Part shown: one piece after another, positions 2,931 through 26,666 of the stretch
How positions within the stretch are numbered: the first letter of the stretch is position 1
How the letters are laid out: every line of letters starts with the position of its first letter
NCBI GenBank assembly: GCA_964016885.1
Contig: OZ024740.1
Span: forward strand, 433,814,001 to 433,878,000
Direction of reading: 5' to 3'
DNA: 64,000 bases
Origin: Eledone cirrhosa
Taxonomy: Eukaryota
Notes under the pieces: generated by a model
Told to the model about the DNA's origin: nothing
What the model saw: only the letters and a program-made list of their open reading frames with translations
Database searches by the model: none
Made by a program: the position numbers and the translations under genes

Positions 2931-3669
2931 TAAGAAGTTCAGGGAGCTACTACCACTGCTAGCTGCAAAAGGCTTTTCCCTCAAAATGAAAGGCAGACTG
3001 TATGATGCGTGTATCCGAACAGCAATGTTACATGGTAGTTAGACCTGGGCGCCGTCTGTGGAAGGCTTGCATAGATTAGAAAGAAACGAAGCCTGCATGC
3101 TCCGATGGATGTGTAACAGTAATATACGTGAACGGCAAAACATAAATGAATTGAGAGAGAGACTGAGCATAAGAGGAATCAAATGCTGTGTGCAGGAGAG
3201 GCGGTTGCGTTGGTATGGACATGTGATGCGTATGAAGGATGACAGCTGCATAAAAAGGTGCAGAGCACTAGAAGTCGATGGAAACCGCGGAGTGGGGAGA
3301 TCGAAGAAGACCTGGGATGAGGTGATAAAAGCCGACCTTACCCAATTACACCTCTCATGACCTTGACCTCTGGCGTCTCGCAGTAATACAGAGTCCCGAC
3401 CTCCCATGGGTACAAGCTGAAGCATATAGACAATATGCCCCCACACCCTCCCACTGTAAAGTGGTCGTGGAGGTGCCACGGCAAAAAAGCACCCAGCCCA
3501 CACTGAAAATGAGGTTGGTGTTAGGAAGGGCATCCAGCTGTAAAAATCAAGCCAAAATCAGTTCCTATATGAGCAAGACAAGGTCAGCTGACCAGACACT
3601 ACCCACAACAGGACAACCCGTCTAACCCATGTTAGCGTGGAAGAACGGCCGTAAAATGGTGATGATGAT
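2931..3669 (+). mobile_element. 5'-truncated RTE-clade LINE fragment (ORF C-terminus, 3'UTR, GAT tail)
   Basis: ORF 3058-3360 (RLERNEACMLRWMC...RRLRWYGHVMR...KKTWDEVI) closely matches the end of the 25455-26666 ORF. It shares the 3'UTR and ends in (GAT)n. Confidence 0.9.
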
Positions 3670-4153: not shown

Positions 4154-4635
4154 CTATTCTTCCTCTATATCTCTCACTTCCTCATCCTTTATACTTCTCT
4201 GGAAGAAATCTGCTGTATTCAGACCTGGAGAGGAGATGGGCTCCACCAGATTTCAATATAACACCTCTACAACTCCCCCAACAGTTACGGGACCAACAAT
4301 TACTATGGTCGTCTCGGCTTCATGTTTATAAAAGAAATAAGTGGCCAGAGCTTAGACCTGAAATAAATTTCCAGTGATCAGAATTCATGACTTGGTTTTG
4401 ATTTCCTGCTGAAGCCAGTTTATTTCACTTGAGTTCCTAATAAAACTTCATTATAGAAACTGCCCAACTTTCTATTTCGCATAAGCTATCTGCTTAACCT
4501 TTTAGCATTTAAACTGGTCATATCTGGCCTTAATTCTCTCACCTCTTTCTGCTCAAACTGGTCGTAACTAGCTGCTCATAACAATGTTAAGGTATTGTTC
4601 TCAAAATAAATAATATCAAAATGTCGTAGATTCAA

Positions 4636-4965
4636 TATTATGTGAGGTAAAGCCTTTATCATGAAAATACAATAGTAAATATAGCGTAATGTAAATATTA
4701 TGTGAGGTAAAGCCTTTACTATGAAAATACAATATTATATATAGAGTAATGTAAATGTTACGTGAGATATTATGTGAGGTAAAGCCTTTACTGTGAAAAT
4801 ACAATAGTATATATATAGAGTAATGTAAATGTTATGTGAGATATTATGTGAGGTAAAGCCTTTACTGTGAAAATACAATAGTATATATAGAGTAATGTAA
4901 ATGTTATGTGAGATATTATGTGAGGTAAAGCCTTTACTGTGAAAATACAATAGTATATATAGAGT
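4636..4965. repeat. 72-bp (and 60-bp) minisatellite, array A
   Basis: Unit ATTATGTGAGGTAAAGCCTTTACTGTGAAAATACAATAGTATATATAGAGTAATGTAAATGTTATGTGAGAT. The first unit is the 60-bp form lacking the 12-bp internal duplication. Confidence 0.95.
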
Positions 4966-5202
4966 GGTTTCTTTATTTGCCACTAGGGCACAAAAGGTAG
5001 GGACAGATACAAGGGGGGAAGTTTACATATAATTAACGAGTATAAAAATATAACAATGAAATAACAACAACAAACGAAGTCCTCAATAGGGAGGGGGCAT
5101 TAACATGGGTCGCACACACCCCGGAAAAAATGTGCAACCCTTCTCCTCAGGAGCACAAAGAGTAGGTGCTTCCCTCGTCTCCTCTTTTTCCTCTTCTTTC
5201 AC

Positions 5203-8200
5203 CTACAGGCTGATATAGAGAGAAGACCCATTCACTCTGGCCATTCTCCCTACTTTCACCCACCTTTCATAAAACTTGCTGGGGTAGAGCACCTCTCTCT
5301 CCATTCTGATCCTTCTTTTAAAATGGTATTTGAAAAAGGGGACCAGTTGTTGGCCGGAGAGAAAGGTGTCTGACCTCAGCCCTTTCAGCCTCGTCGACCA
5401 TACAACTTCTTTAGCGATGGCTATCACACAGAGAAAAACCGCCTCTCCTTCGTTTTTGAAAGGGGGAGGCGGTTTGATCGTGACAATGGACTCGGTGGTC
5501 AACCGGATTGGGGCCACCCTCGACAGTAGTCGTTCCACATAGCCCCACAGGTCAGCAATGCCTGGGCAGTGTACGAATGCGTGCGCAACGGTTTCGTCAT
5601 CATGCACGCATCTCGGACAGATCTTATTCAAAGGATCTCTACCCAGGCTCCCATGCCTGTGGAGCTTGTCTCGAACGGGTAGAGCCCCTCGGTAGCACTG
5701 CCAAGCCAGGGACTTTTGGAAGTTGTCCATCGGTCCAGGGCCAAACGTCCTACCGAACAGACTGGCCAGTTCATCTTTCTCCATGCCTAGAGCTTCTCCG
5801 AGAGCATCGCCGCACCTGCTGCGTACCAACCCTCTATAGAATGTCGAGGTGGAGTCTCCACTGATTGCCGGGTCCGCTTTCCAGAGGGCCGTGAGCGCCT
5901 GGGCACATTCAATGTGCCAGTCGCCCACTTTTCTCGGTCTTTGCTTGACCCAGGATTGCAGCTCGGTGAGCGAGACGAGTCTGGGAAAGGCTCGCCTCAC
6001 AAACGGGGCCCACACCGGTTGACCGGTGAGGAATACCTGGAGGTGCCGTAGCCTTAATGCGTGTTTACGCATCTGTAGCCACGGCATCCCCAGCCCTCCT
6101 TTCGAAGGGTGTTGACAGCAGATGGATCTCCTCACCAAAGGGGTCCGCTTGTTCCAAAGAAATTGGAACAGTGCGCACTCCATTTTGGCGAGTCTTTTCA
6201 CTGGGCAAGGCACGACGGTCAAGCGGTAGTAGATGACGGATGCTATATAAGTATTCGCCACCTCCGCTCGACCTTTCAGGGATAGTTTGCACTGGGCCCA
6301 CTTCTGGGTGAGTGCAAACACCCTGGCCGTTACCTCGTTCCAGTTTTTCTCCTGGAGGTCTGGTCCGAACCAGACCCCAAGCAGCTTCACCGGGCCCTCC
6401 GTCCAGCGTCCGACGACGTCGTTGGAGGGCATCGGTTTGCCTCTCCATGTTCCGAGTTGCAAACCGACGGACTTGTCCCGGTTCAGCTTGGCTCCCGTAA
6501 ACCTTTCATATTCCTCCAGTAAGGTGCCGATCTCACCGATTTGCGAGGTTTTCGACACCATTACTGTCACGTCATCGGCGTAGGCCGACGCCGCTTTCTG
6601 CAATCCCGGTTCCAAAGGGATGCCCAGCAACCGCTCTAACTTCCGCAGTAGTGGCTCAAGAGCCAGCACATACAGTAGGGAGGAGAGAGGGCTTCCCTGT
6701 CGGATGGATCGCATGATTTGGAACGGCTCCGAGAGGTGGCCGTTCACCTTGACCCTTGAGCAGACGTTGCTGCTGTGCATCGCAGCAATCCAACCCCTGA
6801 AAACGGGTCCGAAGCCTGCCGCCGCGAGCACCGCATCCAGGTAACGATGGTCAACCCTATCGAAAGCTTTAGATTGATCCAAGTTGATCAGGGCCCCACC
6901 AAAGCCGGGTTCATTCCCTACCCTCTCTATGATGTATCGCATAAGGTGGAGATTGTCGTGAATGGACCTGGACGGGATTGCGCATGTCTGCGCTTCTCCC
7001 ACCAGGTTTCCGACGACAAGCACCAACCTCTTCGCTAACACCTTGGCCAAAATCTTTAACTCTGTATTTAGCAGAGTTATGGGCCTTAAGTTACTTATGT
7101 CATCCCCCTTGTTCTCATCCTTCCTCACCAGCGTAACTACGCCCTTGGTCACAGAACTGGGAATTCTCCCGTTCTGCTGCCAGTTGCAGTAGACCGCTTC
7201 GAGGATATCGGAGAACAAGTCCGGCATCGCTACATATAGCTCGTATGGTAGACCATCGAGACCCGGGGATTTGCGTTTGCCGCATTGGCTCAGCGCCGCC
7301 CCTATCTCAGCAGCTGAAATCGTCCTTTCGCAGGACTTCGCCTCCGCGTCCGAGAGGCGCGGCAGACCGTCGAGGTATGGATTGAAATCCATAGTCTCAC
7401 CCGGCGCGCAGCCCCTCTCGAACAGTCGTGCAAAGTGCCGCTGAAAGGCCGTACACATCTGCCCAGGTTCAAGGATCATACGCCCATCCTGGTCCTTCAA
7501 AGACCGAATCGTGGACTTGTTCCCACTTTTTTCCTCTGTCACTCGGGCCCAGCTCACAGCTTTGGCTCCCTCATTACCCAGAGCACGTATTTTACTCCTG
7601 ACAACGCAGCCTTCATGCTTCACCTCAAAGAACTGGTCTAAGGCCATTCTTGATGCTAGCACGCCGGCTACATTGCCACTCCTAATCGCCTCTTCTACTC
7701 TATCTACTAATTCCCTTTCCGTCTTGTTCCTATCCCTTGCTAATTCCTGACTAAAACCTATCGATTCTATTCTAATTGCTCTCTTAAGAGAGCTCCACCA
7801 CCTGTTGTTGACAATTGCCCCTGTCAAACTCTGCTTAACTAACGTGCTAATCCGTTTACTGTAAGCTTTGCTTCTCAGTAAGGACAAGTTCATCTTCCAG
7901 TAACCGGGTCCCTGTCTATGGGTTCTATCAAGGTTGGCTATGCAGGTCACTAACTTGTGATCCGAATAGTCAACCATGAACATTTTTGGACAGCTAAATG
8001 TGTCCCTATCCTTCTCTCTAACTAGGACCCTATCTAGGTACGGCCTAGATGTTCCGCTAAAATTGGTCCACGTCCATAGTGGTACAGTCGGAAAATCTAG
8101 TCGATATCTATCGGCCAGGTCAAATCGGCCGATTAACCTTTTGAGGCTTTTACACCCCCCTCTATTGGCACATGCCCCTACATAGTCCCAACGTGCATCC

Positions 8201-8637
8201 AGGATACCATTCCAGTCCCCCACTAAAAGCAAGGAGCGGGACGTTCCCAGAAAAGTTTCCAGACGTTGGAAGTATTCCGGCCGCGCTACCCAAAAAGGGG
8301 CGTACACAGCTATTAGTCTAAGGGCTCCACTTTCACTACTGCCGACGTCTAAAACCACCAGTCGACCCTCCGGGTCCAGGTGCACCTTCTGTATGGCGAG
8401 GCCCAGGTGTTTTCGCAGCAGAACGACAACTCCACCCCCACCCCCCGGTTGACAGAGAGATGCGAAGATCTCAAAGTCGTCGAAGAGGGGCGCCAGTTGG
8501 TGCTCGCTGCTGATCCTGGACTCGCAAATAGCCATTACATCCATTCTATGCGACCTGAGATCGTTTAAAAGTTTGCCTTGTTTCCAAGACAGTCCCAGGC
8601 CACGTACATTCAGACACCCAACTCTTATATCAGCCAT
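5203..8637 (-). CDS. LINE ORF2p: AP-like endonuclease, reverse transcriptase, C-terminal CCHC zinc finger (1144 aa)
   Basis: EN motifs LNVRG, AICES, VYAP, GDWN, LDRV, SDH. RT motifs KSPGLDG, RPITLLN, DQSKAFDRVDH, IRQGSPLS, YADD, KLLGV. GGLG motif and CPRC-x8-H-x4-C. PGYWKMN and the overall architecture are typical of Tx1/L1-clade elements. Confidence 0.96.
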   Translation of the reverse strand: MADIRVGCLNVRGLGLSWKQGKLLNDLRSHRMDVMAICESRISSEHQLAPLFDDFEIFASLCQPGGGGGVVVLLRKHLGLAIQKVHLDPEGRLVVLDVGSSESGALRLIAVYAPFWVARPEYFQRLETFLGTSRSLLLVGDWNGILDARWDYVGACANRGGCKSLKRLIGRFDLADRYRLDFPTVPLWTWTNFSGTSRPYLDRVLVREKDRDTFSCPKMFMVDYSDHKLVTCIANLDRTHRQGPGYWKMNLSLLRSKAYSKRISTLVKQSLTGAIVNNRWWSSLKRAIRIESIGFSQELARDRNKTERELVDRVEEAIRSGNVAGVLASRMALDQFFEVKHEGCVVRSKIRALGNEGAKAVSWARVTEEKSGNKSTIRSLKDQDGRMILEPGQMCTAFQRHFARLFERGCAPGETMDFNPYLDGLPRLSDAEAKSCERTISAAEIGAALSQCGKRKSPGLDGLPYELYVAMPDLFSDILEAVYCNWQQNGRIPSSVTKGVVTLVRKDENKGDDISNLRPITLLNTELKILAKVLAKRLVLVVGNLVGEAQTCAIPSRSIHDNLHLMRYIIERVGNEPGFGGALINLDQSKAFDRVDHRYLDAVLAAAGFGPVFRGWIAAMHSSNVCSRVKVNGHLSEPFQIMRSIRQGSPLSSLLYVLALEPLLRKLERLLGIPLEPGLQKAASAYADDVTVMVSKTSQIGEIGTLLEEYERFTGAKLNRDKSVGLQLGTWRGKPMPSNDVVGRWTEGPVKLLGVWFGPDLQEKNWNEVTARVFALTQKWAQCKLSLKGRAEVANTYIASVIYYRLTVVPCPVKRLAKMECALFQFLWNKRTPLVRRSICCQHPSKGGLGMPWLQMRKHALRLRHLQVFLTGQPVWAPFVRRAFPRLVSLTELQSWVKQRPRKVGDWHIECAQALTALWKADPAISGDSTSTFYRGLVRSRCGDALGEALGMEKDELASLFGRTFGPGPMDNFQKSLAWQCYRGALPVRDKLHRHGSLGRDPLNKICPRCVHDDETVAHAFVHCPGIADLWGYVERLLSRVAPIRLTTESIVTIKPPPPFKNEGEAVFLCVIAIAKEVVWSTRLKGLRSDTFLSGQQLVPFFKYHFKRRIRMEREVLYPSKFYERWVKVGRMARVNGSSLYISL

Positions 8638-8658
8638 GTTGGTTAACAGAGGAAGGAC

Positions 8659-10392
8659 CTACCTGTTCGGCTCCTGAGGAGCAGGTTGCACAATATCCAT
8701 GGGCGTATTGGAGGGGTTGTTTGGTGGGGTGTTGTTCTGTGGTGGAGTGGGGGTGTTTGGTGAGGTGTGGGTGGGGAAACGTTTCAAGAGGACGCGGTTA
8801 TAGGGTCGAGTACATGTTTTCCCCACGTCCTCAGGAAAGTTCTCTCTTAGTTTTGCATAGGTGTCCATTGGGAGTCTTATCATTTTTAAATGCGGTTTGT
8901 TGGCCGCGCTTGCAAAGAATTGCCCTTCAGTTTCCACCGAAGGGTCTTTGTGTATTGTTTTTACTAGTTCTTTGTTATTTGTGTTAATGTATGCATACTG
9001 TTTTATTTGTGTTGTGTTTGTTTGTTGTTCTTGTGTGTGCTTACGTTTTGTTGTATGTGTTATGTTTTGGGGTGGGGAGGATTTTGTTTGTTCTGTTTGT
9101 TTTGTTTTTGTTGGTGGTTGTGTGTTTGTTTCGTTTATGTTCGAGTGGTGCTTTCTTTTTTTCCTTTTTACAGGTTGGAAGGGTTCCCCCTCTTCGTCAC
9201 TAGGTGCCGTTTCCGCTGGGTCCTCGTCCGTGCTGTCGGGTAGTGGTGTATTTGGGGGTTTTGTTGTATTTGTGTGTGTTTTGGGAGTTGTTTTGGGTGG
9301 GGCCGTGTCTTGTGTTATTTTTCCGTGTTGTTTTTGTTGTTGTTGTGGTGGTGGTGGTGGAGGTGGTGGTGGCGGCGGTGGTGGTGTGTGGGGTGTAGGC
9401 AAAAGAGCCTTTTTTTTTGTCAATTGAGGACAAGCAGCCCTTAGATGACCCCTGCTTGAACAGTAGTAACATATGGGCCTCCTACCCTCGGCTGAAATAT
9501 ATATAAATGTTTCTCCATCGAGGGACACCCTCTGTGGTATTCTAGCTATTCGTTCTGGTCTCATTTGGACCAGAACCTCCACGCTCAAACCGCCGAAAAC
9601 GTCTGTGGTGACTTCTCCTACTGAAAGGATTCCGTCCTCGTCTTCTAAAAATCCTGTTAGTACCCAGGAAATGCATGCATTTGGCCGGATTCCGGAGACC
9701 CTTATCTTCTGCGTTCTTTTCCCTAAATATGTGGGGAAAAATGTATGTAGCTTGGAAACAATTGGCGTCACAGAGTATTTCCTGGCCGTCAATTGATCCT
9801 TCATTAGGACCGTTATATTCCCATAGAGTGGCCCTTTTTGTATGAACGATATATCACTCCACACATTTTTTAGGACCAGCTCAATCTCTTTTTGGGATAA
9901 TTGAGTTGGTTTCCTTGTTATGTTAGAAATTGTTCTGAAAGATATCGTTCTTAGCGTCGTGTCTCTTTTGATTTCTTGTGGGGAGGTGATTGTGAAGTCT
10001 CCTCCTTCTTTGAAAGTTACATACTGTTTCGCTTCCTTCATCTTTTCTCTCAGAGTTGTAATGTCCAGTTGCTTGCAGGTTTGTGTTTTCCGGACCGCCT
10101 GTGCAAAAGAGGCACCAGTAGTGGGTTCGCTTTGTTTGGTGTTATCGTTATTTTTTCCTTCGTTGGTGTTGTGACTATTGCTGTTATTGTCGTTGTTGTT
10201 TTTGTCTGCGTTTATGTGACTTTCTGGGTTTTCACCCATTTTTACAAATTTTTCTTTTAATTCCGTGTTCCATGTTTCTTTTGCAGAAGTGAGGAGGGAA
10301 GACTTAGAGCCTTGTGCTTCTAGCTTCTCTGTATCACCTTTCTTAGGGGGCGTGGCTTTCACGTTAGGATGAGATGTGAAAATTCCGTCCAT
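8659..10392 (-). CDS. LINE ORF1p, gag-like nucleic-acid-binding protein with zinc knuckle (577 aa from first ATG; frame open to 10485)
   Basis: CYYCSSRGHLRAAC = CX2CX4HX4C; SFAQAV motif; Pro/Gln/Thr low-complexity tail with basic KRKKRK. Lies directly upstream of ORF2. Confidence 0.9.
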   Translation of the reverse strand: MDGIFTSHPNVKATPPKKGDTEKLEAQGSKSSLLTSAKETWNTELKEKFVKMGENPESHINADKNNNDNNSNSHNTNEGKNNDNTKQSEPTTGASFAQAVRKTQTCKQLDITTLREKMKEAKQYVTFKEGGDFTITSPQEIKRDTTLRTISFRTISNITRKPTQLSQKEIELVLKNVWSDISFIQKGPLYGNITVLMKDQLTARKYSVTPIVSKLHTFFPTYLGKRTQKIRVSGIRPNACISWVLTGFLEDEDGILSVGEVTTDVFGGLSVEVLVQMRPERIARIPQRVSLDGETFIYISAEGRRPICYYCSSRGHLRAACPQLTKKKALLPTPHTPPPPPPPPPPPPPQQQQKQHGKITQDTAPPKTTPKTHTNTTKPPNTPLPDSTDEDPAETAPSDEEGEPFQPVKRKKRKHHSNINETNTQPPTKTKQTEQTKSSPPQNITHTTKRKHTQEQQTNTTQIKQYAYINTNNKELVKTIHKDPSVETEGQFFASAANKPHLKMIRLPMDTYAKLRENFPEDVGKTCTRPYNRVLLKRFPTHTSPNTPTPPQNNTPPNNPSNTPMDIVQPAPQEPNR

Positions 10393-10602
10393 TTCAATTA
10401 GTTTGCCGTAATAAATTTTTAACTGGAAAATTCGCCCCAAAAAGGGGCGAAAATAAATAAACTCAAAGTTTGACGACCAAGGCAAGGGGTTAACGTATAT
10501 TACAGTATAAAAAAATTAATCAAAACTCACTTTTGAGTAAGTAAATCCGACTCGGTAGCCGAGCTTGTTCACACACGTCAACACACGTCTCTCGTATACG
10601 AG

Positions 10603-11243
10603 ATGTTATGTGAGATATTATGTGAGGTAAAGCCTTTACTATGAAAATACAATATTATATATAGAGTAATGTAAATGTTATGTGAGATATTATGTGAGGT
10701 AAAGCCTTTACTGTGAAAATACAATAGTATATATAGAGTAATGTAAATGTTATGTGAGATATTATGTGAGGTAAAGCCTTTACTGTGAAAATACTATAGT
10801 AAATATAGAGTAATGTAAATGTTATGTGAGATATTATGTGAGGTAAAGCCTTTACTATGAAAATACAATAGTATATATAGAGTAATGTGAATGTAATGGA
10901 GATATTATGTGAGGTAAAGCCTTTACTGTGAAAATACTATATTATATATAGAGTAATGTAAATGTTATGTGAGATACTATGTGAGGTAAAGCCTTTACTG
11001 TGAAAATACAATAGTATATATAGAGTAATGTAAATGTTACGTGAGATATTACGTGAGGTAAAGCCTTTACTATGAAAATACAATAGTATATATAGAGTAA
11101 TGTGAATGTAATGGAGATATTATGTGAGGTAAAGCCTTTACTGTGAAAATACTATAGTAAATATAGAGTAATGTAAATGTTATGTGAGATATTATGTGAG
11201 GTAAAGCCTTTACTGTGAAAATACAATAGTATATATAGAGTAA
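10603..11243. repeat. 72-bp minisatellite, array B (about 9 units) between the two LINEs
   Basis: Same unit as array A. The variant GTGAATGTAATGGAGAT occurs twice (about 10887 and 11102). Confidence 0.95.
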
Positions 11244-11478
11244 TTTCTTTATTTGCCACCAGGGCACAAAAGATAGGGACAGATACAAGGGGGGAAGTTT
11301 ACATATAATTAACGAGTACAAAAATATAACAATGAAATAACAACAACAAACGAAGTCCTCAATAGGGAGGGGGCATTAACATGGGTCGCACACACCCCGG
11401 AGAAAATGTGCAACCCTCCTCCTCAGGAGCACAAAGAGTAGGTGCTTCCCTCGTCTCCTCTTTTTCCTCTTCGTTTAC

Positions 11479-14400
11479 CTACAGGCTGATATAGAGAGAA
11501 GACCCATTCACTCTGGCCATTCTCCCTACTTTCACCCACCTTTCATAAAACTTGCTGGGGTAGAGCACCTCTCTCTCCATTCTGATCCTTCTTTTAAAAT
11601 GGTATTTGAAAAGGGGGACCAGTTTTTGGCCGGAGAGAAAGGTGTCTGACCTCAGCCCTTTCAGCCTCGTCGACCATACAACTTCTTTAGCCATGGCTAT
11701 CACACAGAGAAAAACCGCCTCTCCTTCGTTTTTGAAAGGGGGAAGCGGTTTGATCGTGTCAATGGACTCGGTGGTCAACCGGATTGGTCCCACCCTCGAC
11801 AGTAGTCGTTCCACATAGCCCCACAGGTCAGCAATGCCTGGGCAGTGTACGAATGCGTGCGCAACGGTTTCGTCGTCATGCACGCATCTCGGACAGATCT
11901 TATTCAAAGGATCCCTACCCAGGCTCCCATGCCTGTGGAGCTTGTCTCGAACGGGTAGAGCCCCTCGGTAGCACTGCCAAGCCAGGGACTTTTGGAAGTT
12001 GTCCATCGGTCCAGGGCCAAACGTCCTACCGAACAGACTGGCCAGTTCATCTTCCTCCATGCCTAGAGCTTCTCCGAGAGCATCGTCGCACCTGCTGCGT
12101 ACCAACCCTCTATAGAATGTCGAGGTGGAGTCTCCACTGATTGCCGGGTCCGCTTTCCAGAGGGCCGTGAGCGCCTGGGCACATTCAATGTGCCAGTCGC
12201 CCACTTTTCTCGGTCTTTGCTTGACCCAGGATTGCAGCTCGGTGAGCGAGACGAGTCTGGGAAAGGCTCGCCTCACAAACGGGGCCCACACCGGTTGACC
12301 GGTGAGGAATACCTGGAGGTGCCGTAGCCTTAATGCGTGTTTACGCATCTGTAGCCACGGCATCCCCAGCCCTCCTTTCGAAGGGTGTTGACAGCAGATG
12401 GATCTCCTCACCAAAGGGGTCCGCTTGTTCCAAAGAAATTGGAACAGCGCGCACTCAATTTTGGCGAGTCTTTTCACTGGGCAAGGCACGACGGTCAAGC
12501 GGTAGTAGATGACGGATGCTATATAAGTATTCGCCACCTCCGCTCGACCTTTCAGGGATAGTTTGCACTGGGCCCACTTCTGGGTGAGTGCAAACACCCT
12601 GGCCGTTACCTCGTTCCAGTTTTTCTCCATCTGGAGGTCTGGTCCGAACCAGACCCCAAGCAGCTTCACCGGGCCCTCCGTCCAGCGTCCGACGACGTCG
12701 TTGGAGGGCATCGGTTTGCCTCTCCATGTTCCGAGTTGCAAACCGACGGACTTGTCCCGGTTCAGCTTGGCTCCTGTAAACCTTTCATATTCCTCCAGTA
12801 AGGTGCCGATCTCACCGATTTGCGAGGTTTTCGACACCATTACTGTCACGTCATCGGCGTAGGCCGACGCCGCTTTCTGCAATCCCGGTTCCAAAGGGAT
12901 GCCCTGCAACCGCTCCAACTTCCGCAGTAGTGGCTCAAGAGCCAGCACATTCAGAAGGGAGGAGAGAGGGCATCCCTGTCGGATGGATCGCATGATTTGG
13001 AACGGCTCCGAGAGGTGGCCGTTCACCTTGACCCTTGAGCAGACGTTGCTGCTGTGCATCGCAGCAATCCAACCCCTGAAAACGGGTCCGAAGCCTGCCG
13101 CCGCGGGCACCGCATCCAGGTAACGATGGTCAACCCTATCGAAAGCTTTAGATTGATCCAAGTTGATCAGGGCCCCACCAAAGCCGGGTTCATTCCCTAC
13201 CCTCTCTATGATGTATCGCATAAGGTGGAGATTGTCGTGAATGGACCTGGACGGGATTGCGCATGTCTGCGCTTCTCCCACCAGGTTTCCGACGACAAGC
13301 ACCAACCTCTTCGCTAACACCTTGGCCAAAATCTTTAACTCTGTATTTAGCAGAGTTATGGGCCTTAAGTTACTTATGTCATCCCCCTTGTTCTCATCCT
13401 TCCTCACCAGCGTAACTACGCCCTTGGTCACAGAACTGGGAATTCTCCCGTTCTGCTGCCAGTTGCAGTAGACCACTTCGAGGATATCGGAGAACAAGTC
13501 CGGCATCGCTACATATAGCTCGTATGGTAGACCATCGAGACCCGGGGATTTGCGTTTGCCGCATTGGCTCAGCGCCGCCCCTATCTCAGCAGCTGAAATC
13601 GTCCTTTCATAGGACTTCGCCTCCGCGTCCGAGAGGCGCGGCAGACCGTCGAGGTATGGATTGAAATCCATAGTCTCACCCGGCGCGCCGCCCCTCTCGA
13701 ACAGTCGTGCAAAGCACCGCTGAAAGGCCGCACACAGTCTGCCCAGGTTCAAGGATCATACGCCCATCCTGGTCCTTCAAAGACCGAATCGTGGACTTGT
13801 TCCCACTTTTTGCCTCTGTCACTCGGGCCCAGCTCACAGCTTTGGCTCCCTCATTACCCAGAGCGCGTATTTTACTCCTGACAACGCAGCCTTCATGCTT
13901 CACCTCAAAGAACTGGTCTAAGGCCATTCTTGATGCCAGCACGCCGGCTACATTGCCACTCCTAATCGCCTCTTCTACTCTATCTACTAATTCCCTTTCC
14001 GTCTTGTTCCTATCCCTTGCTAATTCCTGACTAAAACCTATCGATTCTATTCTAATTGCTCTCTTAAGAGAGCTCCACCACCTGTTGTTGACAATTGCCC
14101 CTGTCAAACTCTGCTTAACTAACGTGCTAATCCGTTTACTGTAAGCTTTGCTTGTCGGTAAGGACAAGTTCAGCTTCCAGTAACCGGGTCCCTGTCTATG
14201 GGTTCTATCAAGGTTGGCTATGCAGGTCACTAACTTGTGATCCGAATAGTCAACCATGAACATTTTTGGACAGCTAAATGTGTCCCTATCCTTCTCTCTA
14301 ACTAGGACCCTATCTAGGTACGACCTAGATGTTCCGCTAAAATTGGTCCACGTCCATAGTGGTACAGTCGGAAAATCTAGTCGATATCTATCGGCCAGGT

Positions 14401-14917
14401 CAAATCGGCCGATTAACCTTTTGAGGCTTTTACACCCCGCTCTATTGGCACATGCCCCTACATAGTCCCAACGTGCATCCAGGATACCATTCCAGTCCCC
14501 CACTAAAAGCAAGGAGCGGGACGTTCCCAGAAAAGTTTCCAGACGTTGGAAGTATTCCGGCCGCGCTGCCCAAAAAGGGGTTTACACAGCAATTAGTCTA
14601 AGGGCTCCACTTTCACTACTGCCGACGTCTAAAACCACCAGTCGACCCTCCGGGTCCAGGTGCACCTTCTGTATGGCGAGGCCCAGGTGTTTTCGCAGCA
14701 GAACGACAACTCCACCCCCACCCCCCGGTTGACAGAGAGATGCGAAGATCTCAAAGTCGTCGAAGAAGGGTGCCAGTTGGTGCTCGCTGCTGATCCTGGA
14801 CTCGCAAATAGCCATTACATCCATTATATGCGACCTGAGATCATTTAAAAGTTTGCCTTGTTTCCAAGACAGTCCCAGGCCGCGTACATTCGGACACCCA
14901 ACTCTTATATCAGCCAT
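11479..14917 (-). pseudogene. ORF2 of LINE copy 2, broken
   Basis: Premature TAA at 14582-14584 and a +1 frameshift near 13737 split it into the 111-, 278- and 757-aa ORFs. Otherwise near-identical to 5203-8637. Confidence 0.93.
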
Positions 14918-14938
14918 GTTGGTTAACAGAGGAAGGAC

Positions 14939-16686
14939 CTACCTGTTCGGCTCCTGAGGAGCAGGTTGCACAATATCCATGGGCGTATTGGAGGGGTTGT
15001 TTGGTGGGGTGTTGTTCTATGGTGGAGTGGGGGTGTTTGGTGAGGTGTGGGTGGGGAAACGTTTCAAGAGGACGCGGTTATAGGGTCGAGTACATGTTTT
15101 CCCCACGTCCTCAGGAAAGTTCTCTCTTAGTTTTGCATAGGTGTCCATTGGGAGTCTTATCATTTTTAAATGCGGTTTGTTGGCCGCGCTTGCAAAGAAT
15201 TGCCCTTCAGTTTCCACCGAAGGGTCTTTGTGTATTGTTTTTACTAGTTCTTTGTTATTTGTGTTAATGTATGTATACTGTTTTATTTGTGTTGTGTTTG
15301 TTTGTTGTTCTTGTGTGTGCTTACGTTTTGTTGTATGTGTTATGTTTTGGGGTGGGGCGGATTTTGTTTGTTCTGTTTGTTTTGTTTTTGTTGGTGGTTG
15401 TGTGTTTGTTTCGTTTATGTTCGAGTGGTGCTTTCTTTTTTTCCTTTTTACAGGTTGGAAGGGTTCCCCCTCTTCGTCACTAGGTGCCGTTTCAGCTGGG
15501 TCTTCGTCCGTGCTGTCGGGTAGTGGTGTATTTTGGGGTTTTGTTGTGTTTGTGTGTGTTTTGGGAGTTGTTTTGGGTGGGGCCGTGTCTTGTGTTATTT
15601 TTTCATGTTGTTTTTGTTGTTGTTGTTGTGGTGGTAGTGGTTGAGGTGGTGGTGGTGGTGGCGGTGGTGGTGTGTAGGCAAAAGAGCCTTTTTTTTGGTC
15701 AATTGAGGACAGGCAGCCCTTAGATGACCCCTGCTTGAACAGTAATAACATATGGGCCTCCTACCCTCGGCTGAAATGTATATAAATGTTTCTCCATCGA
15801 GGAACACCCTCTGTGGTATTCTAGCTATTCGTTCTGGTCTCATTTGGACCAGAACCTCCACGCTCAAACCGCCGAAAACGTTTGTGGTGACTTCTCCTAC
15901 TGAGAGGATTCCGTCCTCGTCTTCTAAAAATCCTGTTAGTACCCAGGAAATGCATGCATTTGGCCGGATTCCGGAGACTTTTATTTTCTGCGTTCTTTTC
16001 CCCATATATGTGGGGGAAAATGTGTGTAGCTTGGAAACAATTGGCGCCACAGAGTATTTCCTGGCCGTCAATTGATCCTTCATTAGCACCGTTATATTCC
16101 CATAGAGTGGCCCTTTTTGTATGAACGATATATCACTCCACACATTTTTTAGGACCAGCTCAATCTCTTTTTGGGATAATTGAGCTGGTTTCCTTGTTAT
16201 GTTGGAAATTGTTCTGAAAGATATCGTTCTTAGTGTCGTGTCTCTTTTGATTTCTTGTGGGGAGGTGATTGTGAAGTCTCCTCCTTCTTTGAAAGTTACA
16301 TACTGTTTTGCTTCCTTCATCTTTTCTCTCAGAGTTGTAATGTCCAGTTGCTTGCAGGTCTGTGTTTTCCGGACCGCCTGTGCAAAAGAGGCACCAGTAG
16401 TGGGTTCGCTTTGTTTGGTGTTATCGTTATTTTTTCCTTGGTTGGTGTTGTGACTATTGCTGTTGTTGGTCGTGCTGTTATTGTCATTGTTGTTTTTGTC
16501 TGCGTTTATGTGACTTTCTGGGTTTTCACCCATTTTTACAAATTTTTCTTTTAATTCCGTGTTCCATGTTTCTTTTGCAGAAGTGAGGAGGGAAGACTTA
16601 GAGCCTTGTGCTTCTAGCTTCTCTGTATCACCTTTCTTAGGGGGCGTGGCTTTCACGTTAGGATGAGATGTGAAAATTCCGTCCAT
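14939..16686 (-). pseudogene. ORF1 of LINE copy 2, broken
   Basis: Net -1 frameshift at the poly-Pro tract (about 15640-15680), premature TAG at 15017-15019, and an in-frame 15-bp insertion relative to copy 1. Confidence 0.9.
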
Positions 16687-16896
16687 TTCTATTAGTTTGC
16701 CGTAATAAATTTTTAACTGGAAAATTCGCCCCAAAAAGGGGCGAAAATAAATAAACTCAAAGTTTGACGACCAAGGCAAGCGGTTAACGTATATTACAGT
16801 ATAAAAAAATTAATCAAAACTCACTTTTGAGTAAGTAAATCCGACTCGGTAGCCAAGCTTGTTCACACACGTCAACACACGTCTCTCGTATACGAG

Positions 16897-17246
16897 ATGT
16901 TATGTGAGATATTATGTGAGGTAAAGCCTTTACTGTGAAAATACAATAGTATATATAGAGTAATGTAAATGTTATGTGAGATATTATGTGAGGTAAAGCC
17001 TTTACTGTGAAAATACAATAGTATATATAGAGTAATGTAAATGTTATGTGAGATATTATGTGAGGTAAAGCCTTTACCGTGAAAATACAATAGTATATAT
17101 AGAGTAATGTAAATGTTATGTGAGATATTATGTGAGGTAAAGCCTTTACTGTGAAAATACAATAGTATATATAGAGTAATGTAAATGTTATGTGAGGTAA
17201 AGCCTTTACTGTGAAAATACAATAGTATATATTGAGTAATGTAAAT
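16897..17246. repeat. 72-bp minisatellite, array C, running into the MITE right terminus
   Basis: Units start at 16911, 16983, 17055, 17127. The last unit is 60-bp and is followed by GCTAAATGGTTAA. Confidence 0.95.
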
Positions 17247-17395
17247 GCTAAATGGTTAAATGTAGTCAATTGAAACAGCCAGCACTTGTTTGCAATGTTT
17301 TTAAATGTTGATATTAAAAGACGCCCTAATAAATTGTTTAGTCTATGAGGTTTAAATACTGTTAGAAGAAAGTAGGAAGGAAATAAACAGAGAAT

Positions 17396-17725
17396 ATTAT
17401 TAACACTGTTGCTACAGTGTTAATAATGAAATACACTGCCTATGTCTCTCAACACTGTTGCTACAGTGTTAATAAAGAAATACACTGCCCCTGTCTCTCA
17501 ACACTGTTGCTACAGTGTTAATAATAAAATGCACTCTCTATCTCTGTCAACACTGTTGCTACAGTGTTAATAATGAAATACACTGTCTATGCCTCTCAAC
17601 ATTGTTGCTACAGTGTTAATAATAAAATACACTGCTGCTACAGTGTTAATAACGAAACACACTGCCCATGTCTCTCAATTAACACTTTCACAATAGTGTT
17701 TATAATGAAATACACTGCCTATGTC
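17396..17725. repeat. Degenerate 49-bp minisatellite with palindromic core, about 6-7 copies
   Basis: AACACTGTTGCTACAGTGTTAATAA at 17402, 17451, 17500, 17549, 17598. Confidence 0.88.
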
Positions 17726-19124: not shown

Positions 19125-20090
19125 TCATATTACATCTACTTTCCACACTGGCATGTGTTGGAGAGGTTGTCACAGTCTGAGACCAGACTTTCCACACTGG
19201 CATGTGTTGGAGAGGTTGTCACAGTCTAAGACCAGACTTTCCACACTGGCATGTGTTGGAGAGGTTGTCACAGTCTGAGACCAGACTTTCCACACTGGCA
19301 TGTGTTGGAGAGGTTGTCACAGTCTGAGACCAGACTTTCCACACTGGCATGTGTTGGAGAGGTTGTCACAGTCTGAGACCAGACTTTCCACACTGGCATG
19401 TGTTGGAGAGGTTGTCACAGTCTGAGACCAGACATTTGGGAGTGACCTCATCTTACTCATACATTACATATTTAGCATGGTTTCTATGGCTGGATGCACT
19501 TTACAATGGATAGATTGTTTTTGCAATACCAGCACAACCACAGGACTAGGTATATTGTATCAAGGTACCAACACTAGCAATTTGCAAGATGTACTGAGTG
19601 TATTTTATTATGTCACTAGTACTAAAGAAGTTGTTATATTCTCGACTAGACGAAAGTGTTCCCTTAAACCCTTAAACCCTTAAGTGTTCCCTTAAACCTT
19701 AAGTGTTCCCTTAAACCCTGTATTGTCTTCATTTGATTACCAAACATTGTAGCCTCCCATCTCCCACCACATTTACCTTTATTGTCTTACTACTTGTACT
19801 GGGGGACATGTCTTTTATATTATAGTATATTATCAATCAGCTGTCTTGTGTCATCTCCTTTCTTGATGTCATTCTTTACAACTTCGTCCCATATTTTCCT
19901 TGATCAAGAGTTTGGCACTTTTTTTTATCCAATCTCACTCTCCTGTATCACATATACATATCAGAGTAATCATCACTCTTACACAGTATATTTAATTAAA
20001 ATATTCTCTCAACTCTCTTATACTCTGTCATTCACATACACTAATATTGCACATCCAGTGAAGTCACTGCAAATATTCTGACCAGTTATA
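19125..20090 (-). mobile_element. Old, degraded RTE LINE 3' portion
   Basis: Begins TTTCCACACTGGCATG, resembling the reverse complement of the RTE 3' end at about 27015-27035. GGTTTCTATGGCTGGATGC at about 19480 matches 29980-29998, and decayed GHVMR-region sequence lies near 19940-19980. Confidence 0.55.
19138..19433. repeat. 49-bp minisatellite, 6 near-perfect copies
   Basis: ACTTTCCACACTGGCATGTGTTGGAGAGGTTGTCACAGTCTGAGACCAG at 19138, 19187, 19236 etc. Confidence 0.97.
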
Positions 20091-20230: not shown

Positions 20231-20860
20231 CAGGGATGCTCAGTTCTTGGAAGGCATGTCTTTTAATAGCTCTAAATTTGTTCTAACTTGTTCTGATTTA
20301 TCATTTCTTTTCAGATAAATAATGACAGACATCGAGGTACCCTAACAAATTAAACTGTAATTGTTGCCTTAACCCTTTAGCATTCACATTTCTCTATTAT
20401 TTACTACTGTATTTTCATGGTAAAGGCTTTATATCACATGACATTGAATCTATGAGATTTTAATATTTATTTTGAGAACAATACCTTAACATAAGTATGA
20501 GCAGCCAGTTATGGCTGGTTTAAATAGAAAAAGGTGAGAGAATTCTGGCCACATATGGCTGGTTTAAGTGCTAAAGGTAGAACATAGTGATTTAGAGATT
20601 GTTCACTTCTTGAAAGTTGCATGGTCGTTTGTTATGAAAGCTCTCAAAGAGCTGGAAGTCACTAACAGGGATTCTGCAGCAGTAGCCAAATGTAAAATGT
20701 TTGCTAATGGTCCTAATACCATCAGAACACTCAAATTTTGTATGAAAGGGGCAGCAAATAATCGATAAGAACTCCAGAAAGTCAATTAGTGCTATTGCTA
20801 GGGAGCTTAAGATTTTAAGGCACACTATCAGAAAAATTGTGCTTGAGGACCTTCGATATT
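20231..20860 (+). mobile_element. 5' fragment of a Tc1/mariner (maT-like) transposon, interrupted by a MITE
   Basis: Starts TA|CAGGG. Decayed N-terminal HTH reads MTDIE..VIVAL[MITE]EHSDLEIVHFLKVAWSFV...IIDKNSRKSISAIARELKI..HTIRKIVLEDLRY. Confidence 0.65.
20369..20578 (-). mobile_element. About 210-bp piggyBac-like MITE (unexpanded sibling of the 4494-17259 element)
   Basis: TTAA|CCCTTTAGCATT ... GTGCTAAAGG termini. Contains a single diverged copy of the 60/72-bp unit (TACTGTATTTTCATGGTAAAGGCTTTATATCACAT). Confidence 0.85.
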
Positions 20861-22171: not shown

Positions 22172-24769
22172 ATTGGACAGCTCCAGGATGGTTACACTGG
22201 GGGTACATGGTGGGCACGGTTACGGCTCAAGAAATGAAGAAGGAGTGAGACTTCTTGAATTTTGTGATGCAAGTACATGACTATTTGCAACACTAACTTC
22301 TAGAAACCTGCCAACCACCTAATAATCTACAAATCAGGCAAGCACATAAGCCAGATTGACTTCTTACTAGGCAGATAGTGTCTAATACCAAGGCATACCC
22401 TGGGGAAGAATGTACCCCACGGCGTAGGTTAATTGTTAGTGATATCTCAGTAAGCAAGAGATGGAATGAGACATACAGGAAGGCGTGGAGAAGAAAGGTC
22501 TGGAAGCTAAAAGACCTTTCACTAAAATACAAATTTAGGAAAGCCCCTCAAGGTGTGTATGACGAAAAAGAAGACGATTTAGAGTCGTATGGTATAGATA
22601 ATAACTGGAATTTCTTACGTGACAACTTACTGCAGGCTACTGATGAAACTTGTGGCTGGAGCAGAGCTCCAACCAGACAGAGAGTGACCTGGTGGTGGAA
22701 CAGCACAGTAGATAGGGCCATTAGAGACAAAAGACTAGCATGGAAGGCTTGGAAAAAGGGTGGGAGTAGAAAAGGATATACAGCCGCTAAGAGAGAAGCT
22801 AGACATCAGGTGTACTTAGCACGCAGGGAGGCTGAGAGTAGGAGGTTTGCCAATGTTCTGCGACGGGAAGATCAGAGGCATGCGGTGTTCCACATTGCAA
22901 GGCAATGTGTCAATGCAAATCAGGATGTTGTTGGAGATAAATGTGTCCGGAATGATGCCGGTGTACTTAGTGTAACGAATGATCAGAAAAAGGAGGCCTG
23001 GAAATGTCATTATGAAAGACTGATGAATGTGGAGAACGAATAGGAGAAAGAGAAATTACCCTCAGTAGATCCGACAGAGGGACCAGCTATTGAGATTGAC
23101 GAATATAGGGTCCAAGAGGCGATTAAGGAAATGAAAAATGGTAAGGCTGCTGGACCGTTGGGATAGTTGCTGAGATGCTGAAGGCATCAAGAGACGTAGG
23201 CACTAAACTGGTTGCACACATCATCAATCAGGCTATATATGGTGGTGTCATACACAAAGACTGGTGCAGCAGTATTCTCATAAATTGCTACAAAGGTAAA
23301 GGGGATGCTCTGGAGAGGAGCAATTATAGGGGTATAAAACTGATGGATCAGGTTATGAAAGTGGCAGAAAGGATATTAGCACAACTAATTAGAGAAAGGG
23401 TCAAACTAGATGAGATGCAGTTTGGTTTTGTGTCTGGGAAAAGTACAACAGATGCCCTCTTCTTGGTGAGACAATTAGAAGAGAGGTTCTTAGAGAAGAA
23501 TAAACCACTATACTTAGCCTTTGTTGACCTAGAGAAGGCCTTTGATAGGGTACCCCGATCTGTCATCTGATGGTTCCTAAGGAAACTAGGTGTTGAGGAA
23601 TGGCTTGTGAGGACAGTGCAAACTTTGTACAGAGGTACTGTCAGTAAAGTCAGGGTAGGAATGGAGTTTAGTGAGGAATTCTAGATACAAGTAGGAGTAC
23701 ATCAAGGTTCGGTCCTCAGCCCGCTCTTGTTCATTATAGTCCTCCAAGCCATAACAGAGGAGTTTAAGACTAGCTGTCCATGGGAACTTCTCTATGCTGA
23801 CGATCTGGTTCTTATAGCAGAATCAGTAGAGGAGCTAGAGAATAAATTCCGGCTATGGAAACAGCAGTTGGAAGCAAGAGGACTGAGAGTGAACCTAGCT
23901 AAGACAAAAGTGTTGATGAGTAGAAAAGAGGACAAAACTCTGATTCCATCAGGGAAATGGCCATGTTCGATATGCAGAAAAGGAACTGGCATAAATTCTA
24001 CAAGAGATGTAGTGGGATAGCAGGCAAACTAACAGGTAGGGAGAAATATGTATGCAGTAGATGTACAGGGAAATTAGACAGTAGAAGTCGCATTGATAGA
24101 CACATTTTTCAAATGCAGGCGGGTGCTATAGAAGTGGTGGATAGCTTCTGGTACCTAGGAGATCAGATTAGCATGGGAGGTGGGTGTTCCGAGGCCATAG
24201 TATCTAGAATAAGGACGGGTTGGAAGAAGTTTAGGGAGCTGCTTCCTCTGCTGACAAAGAAGGGTCTTTTCCTGCGTACGAAAGGCTGGTTATGTGATGC
24301 CTGTGTGAGGAGCGCGATGCTGCATAGTAGTGAGACATGGGCAGCTACTGCAGAGGATATGCGATGGCTGGAGAGAAATGAGGCAAGCATGCTCCGTTGG
24401 ATGTGCAGTGTAAATGTGCGTGAACGACCCAGCATGGATGTGTTGGGAGAGAAACTGTGTCTGAGAGGGATAGAATGTAGTGTGCGAGAGAGGAGACTGC
24501 GGTGGTATGGACATGTGATGCGTATGGAGGATGACCGATGGGTGAAGAAGTGCCAGGAAATGCCAGTTGAAGGAAGACGTGATAGAGGTAGACCACGAAA
24601 AACATTGGCGGAGGTGGTGAGAACAGACCTCAGATCACTGAAGCTTGCACTGGAGATGACGAAGGGCCATGACAAGTGGAGAGATGCTGTGCTGAATAAG
24701 ACCCGCCCCACCCTTGCAAGCAGGGAAAAGCGGACGTAAAATGATGATGATGATGATGATGATGATGAT
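22172..24769 (+). mobile_element. RTE-clade LINE, 5'-truncated within the endonuclease, ORF fragmented
   Basis: GHGYGSRNEEG (EN), TWWWN, KGKGDAL..NYRGIKL, QFGF, FVDLEKAFDRVPR, LLYADDL, YLGD, RRLRWYGHVMR, GRPRKT. Several stops and frameshifts; (GAT)n tail 24740-24769. Confidence 0.93.
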
Positions 24770-25005
24770 ATATATATATATATATATCGTTTCTGAATTT
24801 GTTTAGCAAGATTCTTTATCTGAAAACGTGTGTTGAAACCGATATTGTTATACTTTGGTAGGGTCATGTTGCCAATAAGAAACACACGCACCAGTTGCTT
24901 TCACTTCAATTTATTATAAATTAAATTATAAATTTAAGAAATTTATAAATTTCCGGTTGGTTGGTTGGTTGGTTGGTTCCACAATCGGACGGTTGTTCAT
25001 ATATT

Positions 25006-25048
25006 GTCAAAGTTCTTTCGTCACACATTATGTGACCTCTTCAGTGAC
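25006..25048 (-). ncRNA. Candidate minimal hammerhead ribozyme motif (mirror copy)
   Basis: Reverse complement reads GTCACTGAAGAGGTCACATAATGTGTGACGAAAGAACTTTGAC. Confidence 0.55.
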
Positions 25049-25243
25049 TGGGGATTCTTCTCTTTGTTTCGTGCCTCTCCTTTGTTCTGTCCTACGCCAT
25101 CTTGTTTTTGAAAAAACAAGATGGCGTAGAACAAAACAAAAAGAAGAATCCCCAGTCACTGAAGAGGTCATCTTGTTTTTGAAAAAACAAGATGGCGTAG
25201 GACAGAACAAAGGAGAGGCACGAAACAAAGAGAAGAATCCCCA

Positions 25244-25286
25244 GTCACTGAAGAGGTCACAGAATGTGTGACGAAAGAACTTTGAC
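25244..25286 (+). ncRNA. Candidate minimal type I hammerhead ribozyme motif
   Basis: GTCA-CTGAAGA-G-GTCACA(GAATG)TGTGAC-GAAA-G(AA)C-TT-TGAC: stem I GTCA/TGAC, CUGANGA, stem II, GAAA, minimal stem III, CUU triplet. Confidence 0.55.
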
Positions 25287-25454
25287 AATTTATGAACAAC
25301 CGTCCGGTTGTGGAACCAACCAACTGGAAATTTATAAATTTCTTAAATTTATAATTTAATTTATAATAAATTGGAGTGAAAGCAACTGGTGCGTGTATTT
25401 CTTATTGGCAACATGACCCTACCAAAGTATAACAATATATATATATATATATAT

Positions 25455-26666
25455 GCCTTCGACAGAGTCCCCCGCTCCATTATCTGGTGGGCTCTTAGAA
25501 AACTAGGTGTTGACGAATGGCTTGTGAGAGCTATACAAGCCATGTATAAAGAAACAGTCAGCAAGGTTAGAATTAACAACGAATATAGTGAAGAGTTTAG
25601 CGTAAAAGTTGGCGTCCATCAGGGCTCTGTTCTCAGCCCCCTACTATTTATTATTGCCCTTCAGGCTATAACAGAGGAGTTCAAGACCGGCTGCCCATGG
25701 GAACTCCTATACGCAGACGACCTGACACTCATAGCGGAATCAATGGCCGAGCTAGAGAAGAAATTCCAAACATGGAAGCACGGCCTAGAATCAAAAGGCC
25801 TTAAAATTAACCTGGCTAAGACTAAAGTTCTAGTTTGTAGGAAAGAAAATAAGGCGGCGGTCCCTTCTGGGAAATGGTCGTGCTCGGTGTGTAGGAAAGG
25901 CGTAGGTAGAAACTCCATTTTATGTCCTAAATGCAAAGTATGGGTGCATAAAAGATGTAGTCGGATCACAGGTAAGCTAACTAAGAACATAGATTTTACA
26001 TGTGGCCGGTGCTCTGGTGCAATAAGTAGCAGCAAGTGCCCACAAAATACTAGCTCTTTCAATTGCGCAGAGGGTTCTATAGAAATAGTGGACAGTTTCC
26101 GTTACCTGGGTGATAAAATCAGCAGTGGGGGAGGGTGCTCTGAAAGTACAGTAGCTAGAGTCAGAACTGGTTGGAAAAAGTTCAGAGAGCTTATACCACT
26201 ATTAGCTGCTAAAGCGTTCTCCCTAAAAATGAAAGGCAGGTTGTACGATGCCTGCATACGAACAGCAATGTTGCATGGCAGTGAGACCTGGGCATTGTGT
26301 GCAGAGGATATACGCAGACTAGAGAGGAACGAAGTTTGCATGCTCCGCTGGATGTGTAACAGTAATATACGTGAACGGCAAAGCATAAACGAACTAAGGA
26401 AAAAATTAGAAATAAGAGGGATCAGATGTTGTTTACTCGAGAGAAGGCTACGTTGGTATGGACACGTGATGCGCATGAAAGTCGATAGCTGTATAACAAA
26501 GTGCAGGGCAATAAAGATAGACGGTAGCCACGGAATAGGCAGACCTAGAAAAACCTGGGACGAGCTGATAAACTCCGACCTCACACACTTACACCTCTCC
26601 AAGACAATGTCACTGGACCGAGACCTTTGGCGGTACTCAGTAACAGAGAAGACCCGCCTTACCTAA
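25455..26666 (+). pseudogene. Uninterrupted C-terminal 403 codons of an RTE reverse transcriptase with an internal PHD-type finger (no native start)
   Basis: AFDRVP, VHQGSVLSPLLF, LLYADD, C4HC3 cluster, FRYLG, RRLRWYGHVMR. The first 22 codons of the tracked ORF (25389-25454) come from the neighbouring palindrome and TA repeat. Confidence 0.9.

Follow-up and report, generated by a model that had tools for sequence, protein, structure and literature searches.

The window analysed here, a stretch of 64,000 nucleotides from Eledone cirrhosa (GenBank assembly GCA_964016885.1, contig OZ024740.1, positions 433,814,001 to 433,878,000 of the forward strand), contains a composite of nested mobile elements at 4494-17259. 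The composite spans about 12.76 kb and consists of the two ends of a miniature inverted-repeat transposable element (MITE) enclosing three arrays of a 72-bp tandem repeat, between which lie two long interspersed nuclear elements, LINE1 and LINE2, both full length and both on the minus strand; the TTAA sites at both ends and near-perfect terminal inverted repeats (TIRs) are kept. This arrangement had been described in an initial annotation of the window, and the TIRs, the arrays and the LINE coordinates bear it out. The two LINEs are indeed complete in length and in the same orientation, although LINE2 is damaged, with two frameshifts, affecting both of its open reading frames (ORFs), and two stops, one in ORF1 at codon 552 and one in ORF2 at codon 112.

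Read from left to right, the composite begins with TTAA at 4494-4497 (unstranded; read from the sequence and a motif count), the left target-site copy, followed on the plus strand by the 14-bp left TIR of a piggyBac-type MITE (4498-4511; TTAA+CCTTTTAGCATTTA at 4494-4511) and by the unique arm of the MITE (4512-4633, plus strand), in which two short subterminal direct repeats can be read near 4512 and 4556. Array 1 (4634-4965, plus strand; 4634-4966 in Tandem Repeats Finder) holds five units, a 60-mer followed by units of 72, 74 and 72 bp and a last unit cut by LINE1. The 3' junction of LINE1 (4966-4968, minus strand) reads GGT on the plus strand where the repeat has AAT, and LINE1 itself, a Tx1-like non-LTR (long terminal repeat) retrotransposon of 5,634 bp, occupies 4969-10602 on the minus strand. 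Its ORF2 (5203-8637, minus) encodes 1,144 amino acids and its ORF1 (8659-10392, minus) 577, with a CX2CX4HX4C knuckle at 308. Array 2 (10603-11244, plus; Tandem Repeats Finder) has nine units of 71-72 bp, including variant units of its own, and is followed by LINE2 (11245-16896, minus, 5,652 bp). Array 3 (16897-17241, plus; 16897-17196 in Tandem Repeats Finder) comprises three 72-mers, one 60-mer and a terminal unit running into the right TIR (17242-17255, minus; TAAATGCTAAATGG+TTAA at 17242-17259), and the right target-site copy of TTAA lies at 17256-17259 (unstranded). The three period-72 arrays thus hold 19 units (5+9+5), and the two LINEs are 96 substitutions and four indels apart.

The MITE and its amplified segment

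The left and right TIRs are identical in 13 of 14 letters. Their end motif, TTAACCYTTTAGCATT, occurs three times in the window (4494 on the plus, 17244 on the minus and 20369 on the plus strand) against 0.10 expected, a count that none of 100 shuffles reached. The third occurrence belongs to an unexpanded relative of the MITE at 20369-20578, which lies in the opposite orientation (minus strand) and measures 206 bp between its ends (20373-20578); the left arm of the composite matches it at 82% identity over 197 bp (20382-20575). This lone MITE has TTAA at 20369 only; the opposite end is degenerate and reads GCTAAAGGT-AGAA.

Comparison with the lone MITE accounts for most of the repeat unit. The view that the unit is a segment present once in the lone MITE is right for about 60 bp of it; the remainder of the 72-mer is a 12-bp internal duplication (ATGTTATGTGAG/ATATTATGTGAG). 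The 60-mer form is kept by the first and the penultimate units. The amplified segment adjoins the right TIR and takes in its inner six letters, TAAATG on the plus strand, which are present in nearly every unit.

The termini place the MITE among piggyBac elements. TIRs of piggyBac elements are 12-19 bp long and begin with C followed by two letters drawn from C, A and T (PMC5381638), and MITEs of Kolobok/T2 origin have ends with RR (PMC6004289). Here, TTAA stands at 4494 and 17256, with only one copy at the lone MITE, and the 14-bp TIRs begin CCT and CCA (CCC in the lone copy); an empty insertion site was not seen. We assign the MITE to piggyBac rather than to Kolobok/T2 because it combines TTAA with 14-bp TIRs starting in CC, not RR; the CC termini rule out a Kolobok/T2 origin.

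The units of all three arrays also carry a palindrome, GTAAAG-C-CTTTAC, about 30 bp from the LINE insertion site, which folds no better than shuffled sequences. Folding of the unit, of a 91-nt stretch of array, of the LINE 5' junction and of the 3' end gave no significant structure (z -0.31 to -1.14), and a model in which the target is a hairpin is therefore without support. An exact 20-mer of the unit had no match in the genome-contig and viral-contig collections. Other minisatellites lie in the window at 1-1233, 17402-17635, 19138-19433 and 27349-28020, with units of 55, 49, 49 and 61 bp, respectively, the two 49-bp units being different from each other.

Two Tx1-like LINEs

ORF2 contains the Pfam domains Exo_endo_phos, RVT_1 and zf-RVT, with the motifs LNVRG, CESR, GDWN, YLDR, SDHK, YADD (at 686) and CX2CX9HX4C in place. 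It thus has the layout of ORF2 in the Tx1/L1 group, an N-terminal apurinic/apyrimidinic-type (APE) endonuclease, a reverse transcriptase (RT) and a C-terminal CCHC motif. An ORF1 that combines RNA binding with a CCHC knuckle is typical of Tx1, unlike mammalian L1. ORF1 of LINE1 would be of this type by its knuckle at 308 and by residues 110-330, which look like zf-CCHC/ZCCHC3-type (RBD_ZCCHC3) RNA-binding clusters (Atlas scores of 0.90-0.92, to be read as a lead only); Pfam gave no match for ORF1, and there was no sequence homologue among 1,244 candidates. Both ORFs of LINE1 are open, yet its ORF2 deviates from its relatives by S199P at the anchor of the endonuclease hairpin, by C649S and by the loss of one codon near 762, and since these are conserved sites LINE1 must be regarded as decayed, too.

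The proteins closest to ORF2 are an NCBI protein (69%) and one from Argonauta hians (63%), followed by many at about 40%, which makes an octopod the probable host. In phmmer searches the score of ORF2 is 356 bits with a protein of Oryzias, itself placed among YTX2-named proteins, but 178 bits with human L1 ORF2; its identity to a YTX2-named protein is 28%. No link of the proteins BAC82605 and BAC82609 to named families was found. In a quick RT tree (LG+G4, 40 of 64 extracted RT rows, Tx1L and true L1 not among them) the group of the query comprises 11 rows with a support of 100 and attaches to the YTX2-named clade from outside at an SH-aLRT of 84, unstarred. By sequence the element likely belongs to the Tx1 group. 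The initial annotation had also supposed an independent version of the vertebrate arrangement; an origin independent of the vertebrate lineage fits the position of the element outside the YTX2-named clade, in a tree that does not include Tx1L itself. Among relatives from metagenomes, of which 80 loci out of 353 were kept, identity is 24-43%, and DNA resembling the MITE or the unit accompanies none of them.

The LINE ends are distinctive. The 3' end is AATAAAGAA, without poly(A), and the 5' end starts with the palindrome CTCGTATACGAG. Together with the first repeat base, the 5' end of LINE1 forms a perfect 14-bp palindrome at 10591-10604 (TCTCGTATACGAGA on the plus strand), beside which a short direct repeat, ACACACGTC, occurs twice. 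The palindrome is the same in LINE1 and LINE2 and is covered by contigs of two of the sequencing runs described below (X5 and X6); it may reflect either snap-back synthesis or a 5' end that is fixed.

Another LINE family is represented by fragments at 23538-26666 and 2932-3356, and the window contains further copies of 67-78% likeness; the part at 25413-26666 encodes an RT plus a PHD-like finger. A short RT fragment at 28308-28832 represents a third LINE type.

Both LINEs break the repeat at the same register

LINE1 and LINE2 lie on the same strand and in the same 5' register within the 72-bp unit. Their 5' junctions are identical, palindrome included, and break the repeat at TAA|ATG inside the TIR-derived TAAATG. 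The 3' joints differ, reading GAGT-GGT-TTCTTT at LINE1 and GAGT-AAT-TTCTTT at LINE2, of which the LINE2 form equals the repeat; the GGT at 4966-4968 is probably the last bases of LINE1. Compared with the unit, the target lacks 7 bp at LINE1 and 4 bp at LINE2. The predicted nick region comes after a TATATATAG stretch.

An ordinary short target-site duplication (TSD), as would be expected around a LINE in a composite like Tx1C of Xenopus, was found at neither copy. A TSD of 65-68 bp is disfavoured for LINE1, as its flanks differ at 2 of 65 positions; both mismatches match a variant unit elsewhere in array 1. For LINE2 the flanks mismatch at 0 of 68 positions, and a TSD of this length is possible. 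In a tandem array, position alone does not tell such a duplication from a loss of target at either copy.

Counting the two window copies and the contigs of other sequencing runs among the matches listed, all four 5' junctions and all three crossed 3' junctions lie in the repeat. For comparison, a Tx1 family is called target-specific if more than 20% of its copies are flanked by one sequence type (Kojima 2015).

The LINE family in other sequencing runs

Part of LINE1 is held by 12 of 16 listed runs, none of which is an RNA run that would indicate expression, and four of them were compared at 85% likeness: X2 (organism A), X5 (organism B), X6 (organism C) and X7. Of the MITE, the comparison covered the repeat part. 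A contig of X5 covers 10031-10632 (depth 10.2) and one of X6 covers 10084-10632 (depth 4.64). Both run from the 5' end of the LINE into the same 30 letters of the repeat, including the 12-bp duplication, at a depth like that of the rest of the element. Both also have an extra T at 10530 that is absent from the two window copies and present in part of the X2 family (depth 998); it sits in a T run, where such a change can recur. A further X5 contig (4944-5281) crosses the 3' junction in the GGT form of LINE1 and continues 25 letters beyond, with one difference, at 5043, and an X6 contig ends at 4968, where LINE1 and LINE2 diverge. Cover in X7 is thin, and no LINE junction was found there.

The family is most abundant in X2, with depths of 1,959-2,244 for ORF1 contigs and 2,487 for a contig of the 3' untranslated region, while rare joints inside the LINE, among those listed, mostly have depths of 12-44. 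These depths, which lack a single-copy reference, suggest very roughly a hundred LINE copies, mostly full length. In this run, bins with the repeat exceed the ORF1 bins in depth by about a hundredfold. A joint going back by 72 bp, the mark of the tandem periodicity, occurs in three of the four runs compared (X2, X5 and X7), and depth over the repeat greatly exceeds that over the 5' half of the LINE.

LINE1 and contigs from other organisms are 0.58-0.87% apart, and LINE1 and LINE2 0.80-1.85% over the same intervals (18 near-identical records picked from 32 listed), a weak comparison, since copies are merged in contigs and their private changes disappear. Over 5200-8600 of the window, related families of lower identity in X2, X5 and X6 pile up on ORF2, where depth reaches as much as several hundred times the value for the ORF1 half. 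There are thus Tx1-like relatives of far greater abundance, whose ORF1 and ends have no match at 85%.

A probable site preference and its alternatives

On the anatomy, the junctions, the protein domains and the divergence pattern as observed, we consider it probable that a minisatellite arising within a non-autonomous piggyBac MITE contains one site preferred by a Tx1-group family of LINEs, probably from an octopod, in convergence with the Tx1L/Tx1D pair of Xenopus. Beyond these observations we infer the positions of the nicks, the independence of the two insertions and sequence recognition by the endonuclease. The proposal of the initial annotation that the LINE targets the MITE-derived repeat has gained from an excess of synonymous differences in ORF1, two 3' junctions at one register and the 5' junction in two other organism labels, short of proof.

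Whether the LINEs inserted once or twice is the crux, because unequal crossing-over in a tandem array would also yield identical junctions. Two separate insertions fit better than a tandem duplication, since the differences in ORF1 are enriched for synonymous ones, the 3' junctions differ and the 5' junction recurs in contigs of two other organism labels. Among the ORF1 differences 24 of 41 are synonymous against 12.6 expected from a neutral simulation matched for base composition and CpG (P=1.5e-4); without the proline-rich codons 325-360 the count is 17 of 29 against 9.3 (P=0.0026). This points to selection on ORF1 along the path between the copies, which duplication at the DNA level alone would not give. 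In addition, the variant units of array 2 start unlike array 3 and end unlike array 1, where unequal crossover predicts likeness.

Several observations weigh against this reading. The differences in ORF2 look neutral (14 of 45 synonymous against 12.6 expected, P=0.37), and derived amino-acid changes are split 14 and 13 of 30 between the copies, with three unresolved. The excess of divergence sits in ORF1 codons ~100-400 (36 differences over 900 bp, P=2e-4, or P=0.087 once the proline run is left out), and such localized divergence could be produced by gene conversion after duplication. The 5' junctions, palindrome included, are identical. The contigs that cross the junctions reach 30, 30 and 25 letters past the joint, below a 31-letter bridging rule, a stop at 30 letters being what a 31-mer assembly graph would give on entering a high-copy repeat, and those of X5 and X6 may be orthologous to a window copy rather than new events. 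In X2, where the family is most abundant, no LINE junction was found among the matches listed. The endonuclease hairpin, a structure that influences the choice of target (T189 to residue 199), aligns without gaps with that of human L1, while the loops of the Tx1L and TRAS1 hairpins have eleven residues (PMC1950540). Finally, 30820-64000 is occupied by a satellite of 33 kb, built on a base unit of 39 bp with variants of 52/91 bp, and its patterns of variants repeat 8,203 bp apart (for example 33074/41277 and 35856/44059), which indicates a large higher-order duplication; kilobase-scale duplications therefore do occur nearby.

Much of this would follow if one LINE had inserted by chance, or with a weak AT preference, had been duplicated in tandem by unequal crossing-over, and had later had part of ORF1 converted, in one copy, from another family member. 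Identical 5' junctions, a shared register and strand, a neutral-looking ORF2, localized ORF1 divergence and the 8,203-bp duplication in the neighbouring satellite all agree with such a history, and the junction contigs of organisms B and C could be orthologues. It needs, however, a conversion tract as well as two adjacent changes placed exactly at the 3' joint and equal to the repeat, it leaves the arrays without the prefix and suffix pattern expected, and the contigs of organisms B and C have the extra T at 10530, albeit in a run where it may recur. We regard this account as rather unlikely. Less credible still, and in our view very unlikely, is that insertion of the LINE into the MITE array happened a single time or only a few times and that the loaded unit then spread as DNA, by hitchhiking on piggyBac cut-and-paste transposition or by recombination of arrays; junctions would then be widely shared with no repeated targeting. 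Both TTAA sites and near-perfect TIRs do persist around 12.76 kb, and the X2 family looks mostly full length, as copying at the DNA level would give; complete reverse transcription can also account for a lack of 5' truncation, though, and this route explains neither the synonymous excess in ORF1 nor the two forms of the 3' junction, and no second composite was seen.

A loose preference of the LINE for AT-rich or TA-repeat DNA, with an abundant repeat catching insertions by its mass, would suit the TATATATAG stretch ahead of the predicted nick region and the great abundance of the repeat. We give it almost no credence, as all four 5' junctions in the window and the contigs listed fall on one and the same base within the unit, and two unrelated insertions would share register and strand in about 1 of 144 cases by chance.

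Relation to known target-preferring elements

The site of Tx1L lies in internal tandem repeats of Tx1D, forming a composite named Tx1C, and Tx1L makes a short TSD; the LINEs described here likewise lie within internal tandem repeats. Tx1L of Xenopus laevis is a Tx1-group APE LINE whose insertion site is in Tx1D, which belongs to the non-autonomous piggyBac elements (PMC4494074, PMC6719617, PMC1950540). The parallel with this system drawn in the initial annotation is correct, and closer than it claimed, Tx1D itself being a non-autonomous piggyBac element (PMC4494074): in both systems an APE LINE, here probably of the Tx1 group, sits inside such an element. The differences are several. The RT found here falls outside the vertebrate YTX2-named clade, target bases appear to be lost whereas Tx1L makes a short TSD, one element carries two LINEs, and the host is an invertebrate. 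The endonuclease hairpin has the length of that of L1 rather than the eleven-residue loop of Tx1L (PMC1950540). Likened by architecture, the composite probably works like the Xenopus pair and would be convergent with it; a sequence search for Tx1L and Tx1D gave YTX2-named proteins of fish only.

Target-preferring Tx1 families described in print use piggyBac, Mariner, Harbinger and LTR elements, satellites and microsatellites (PMC4494074). The crocodilian families Tx1-Mar, Tx1-9_AMi, Tx1-8_Crp/Tx1-4_AMi and SINEU-3 prefer another transposon (Mariner-N4_AMi, Harbinger or LTR elements), tandem neighbours among crocodilian Tx1 copies arise by sequential insertion, and truncated target sites are reported for SINEU-2, whose mobilization is attributed to Tx1 elements (all PMC4494074); Kibi and Koshi prefer microsatellites (PMC4494074, PMC6719617). 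The composite would resemble the crocodilian families in a preference for another transposon, in sequential tandem insertion and in the truncation of target sites known from the group. The crocodilian targets are not described, in the accessible text of that report, as expanded internal repeats, whereas here the site is multiplied about 19-fold within one MITE. Amplification of an internal segment into an array is known for the Xmix/Xstir MITEs of Xenopus (PMC6004289) and the clam MITE DTC84 (PMC3879986), but Xmix is of Kolobok/T2 type with AGGRR ends, DTC84 has an AA TSD, and the accessible text on both mentions no LINE target.

In Octopus vulgaris, 80 L1-Tx1 consensus families have been annotated, 13 of them recently active, the latter with 421 near-full-length insertions covering 2.29 Mb at about 5.4 kb each (PMC13282606). 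The LINE family described here may be among them if its host is the same or a close species. The accessible part of that annotation contains no target analysis, and 'target' has 0 matches in its supplement (PMC13282606). In Table 1 of the same paper the printed PiggyBac coverage of 3,666,023 bp exceeds the TIR total of 2,175,404 bp, and the rows sum if PiggyBac is taken as 366,023 bp, or about 770 bp per insertion. A search of the open literature, with subscription papers, Repbase/Dfam and the Zenodo library of PMC13282606 outside its scope, found no Tx1 element of a cephalopod or other mollusc described as targeting a MITE repeat.

A putative route to the composite

The four 5' and three 3' junctions are consistent with the following sequence of events. 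A MITE of about 206 bp would have inserted at TTAA, and its TIR-proximal 60 bp would have been duplicated, acquired the 12-bp internal duplication and grown into an array of about 19 units. Two LINE RNAs, whose source elements differed slightly, would then have been inserted separately through target-primed reverse transcription. The priming nick is predicted on the plus strand, the LINEs being on the minus strand, after ...TATAGAGT for LINE1 or ...GAGTAA(T) for LINE2, with reverse transcription starting at the non-poly(A) 3' end, AATAAAGAA(ACC). The second strand would be cut at GTAA|ATG, within the TIR-derived TAAATG and to the right of the first nick, and a second break in this position would lead to the loss of 7 and 4 bp of target. 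Both LINE copies would since have decayed by about 0.6-1%. Because the unit and the junctions fold no better than shuffles, recognition of the primary sequence by the endonuclease is the simpler guess.

That the LINEs might travel inside the MITE termini is a possibility. A more far-reaching scenario, which we think unlikely, is that an invertebrate Tx1 lineage separate from frog Tx1L has converged on piggyBac MITEs by cutting the TIR-derived TAAATG, that expansion of the MITE multiplies decoy sites and so spares its true end, and that the transposase carries the LINE-loaded element of 6-13 kb, making a loop of MITE, minisatellite and LINE that spreads through both RNA and DNA.

Targeted insertion at this locus would involve no new mechanism, as transposon-preferring Tx1 families are already known from frog and crocodile. 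The repeat offers a defined substrate of 72 bp with predicted nick sites for a new, putatively sequence-preferring APE endonuclease, and in at least one sequenced organism the LINE family appears young, with mostly full-length copies. If confirmed, the composite would add a cephalopod-type member to the short list of LINEs that land harmlessly in another transposon, and would represent convergence on the arrangement of the frog by a lineage whose ORF2 shares only about 28% identity with YTX2-named proteins of vertebrates.

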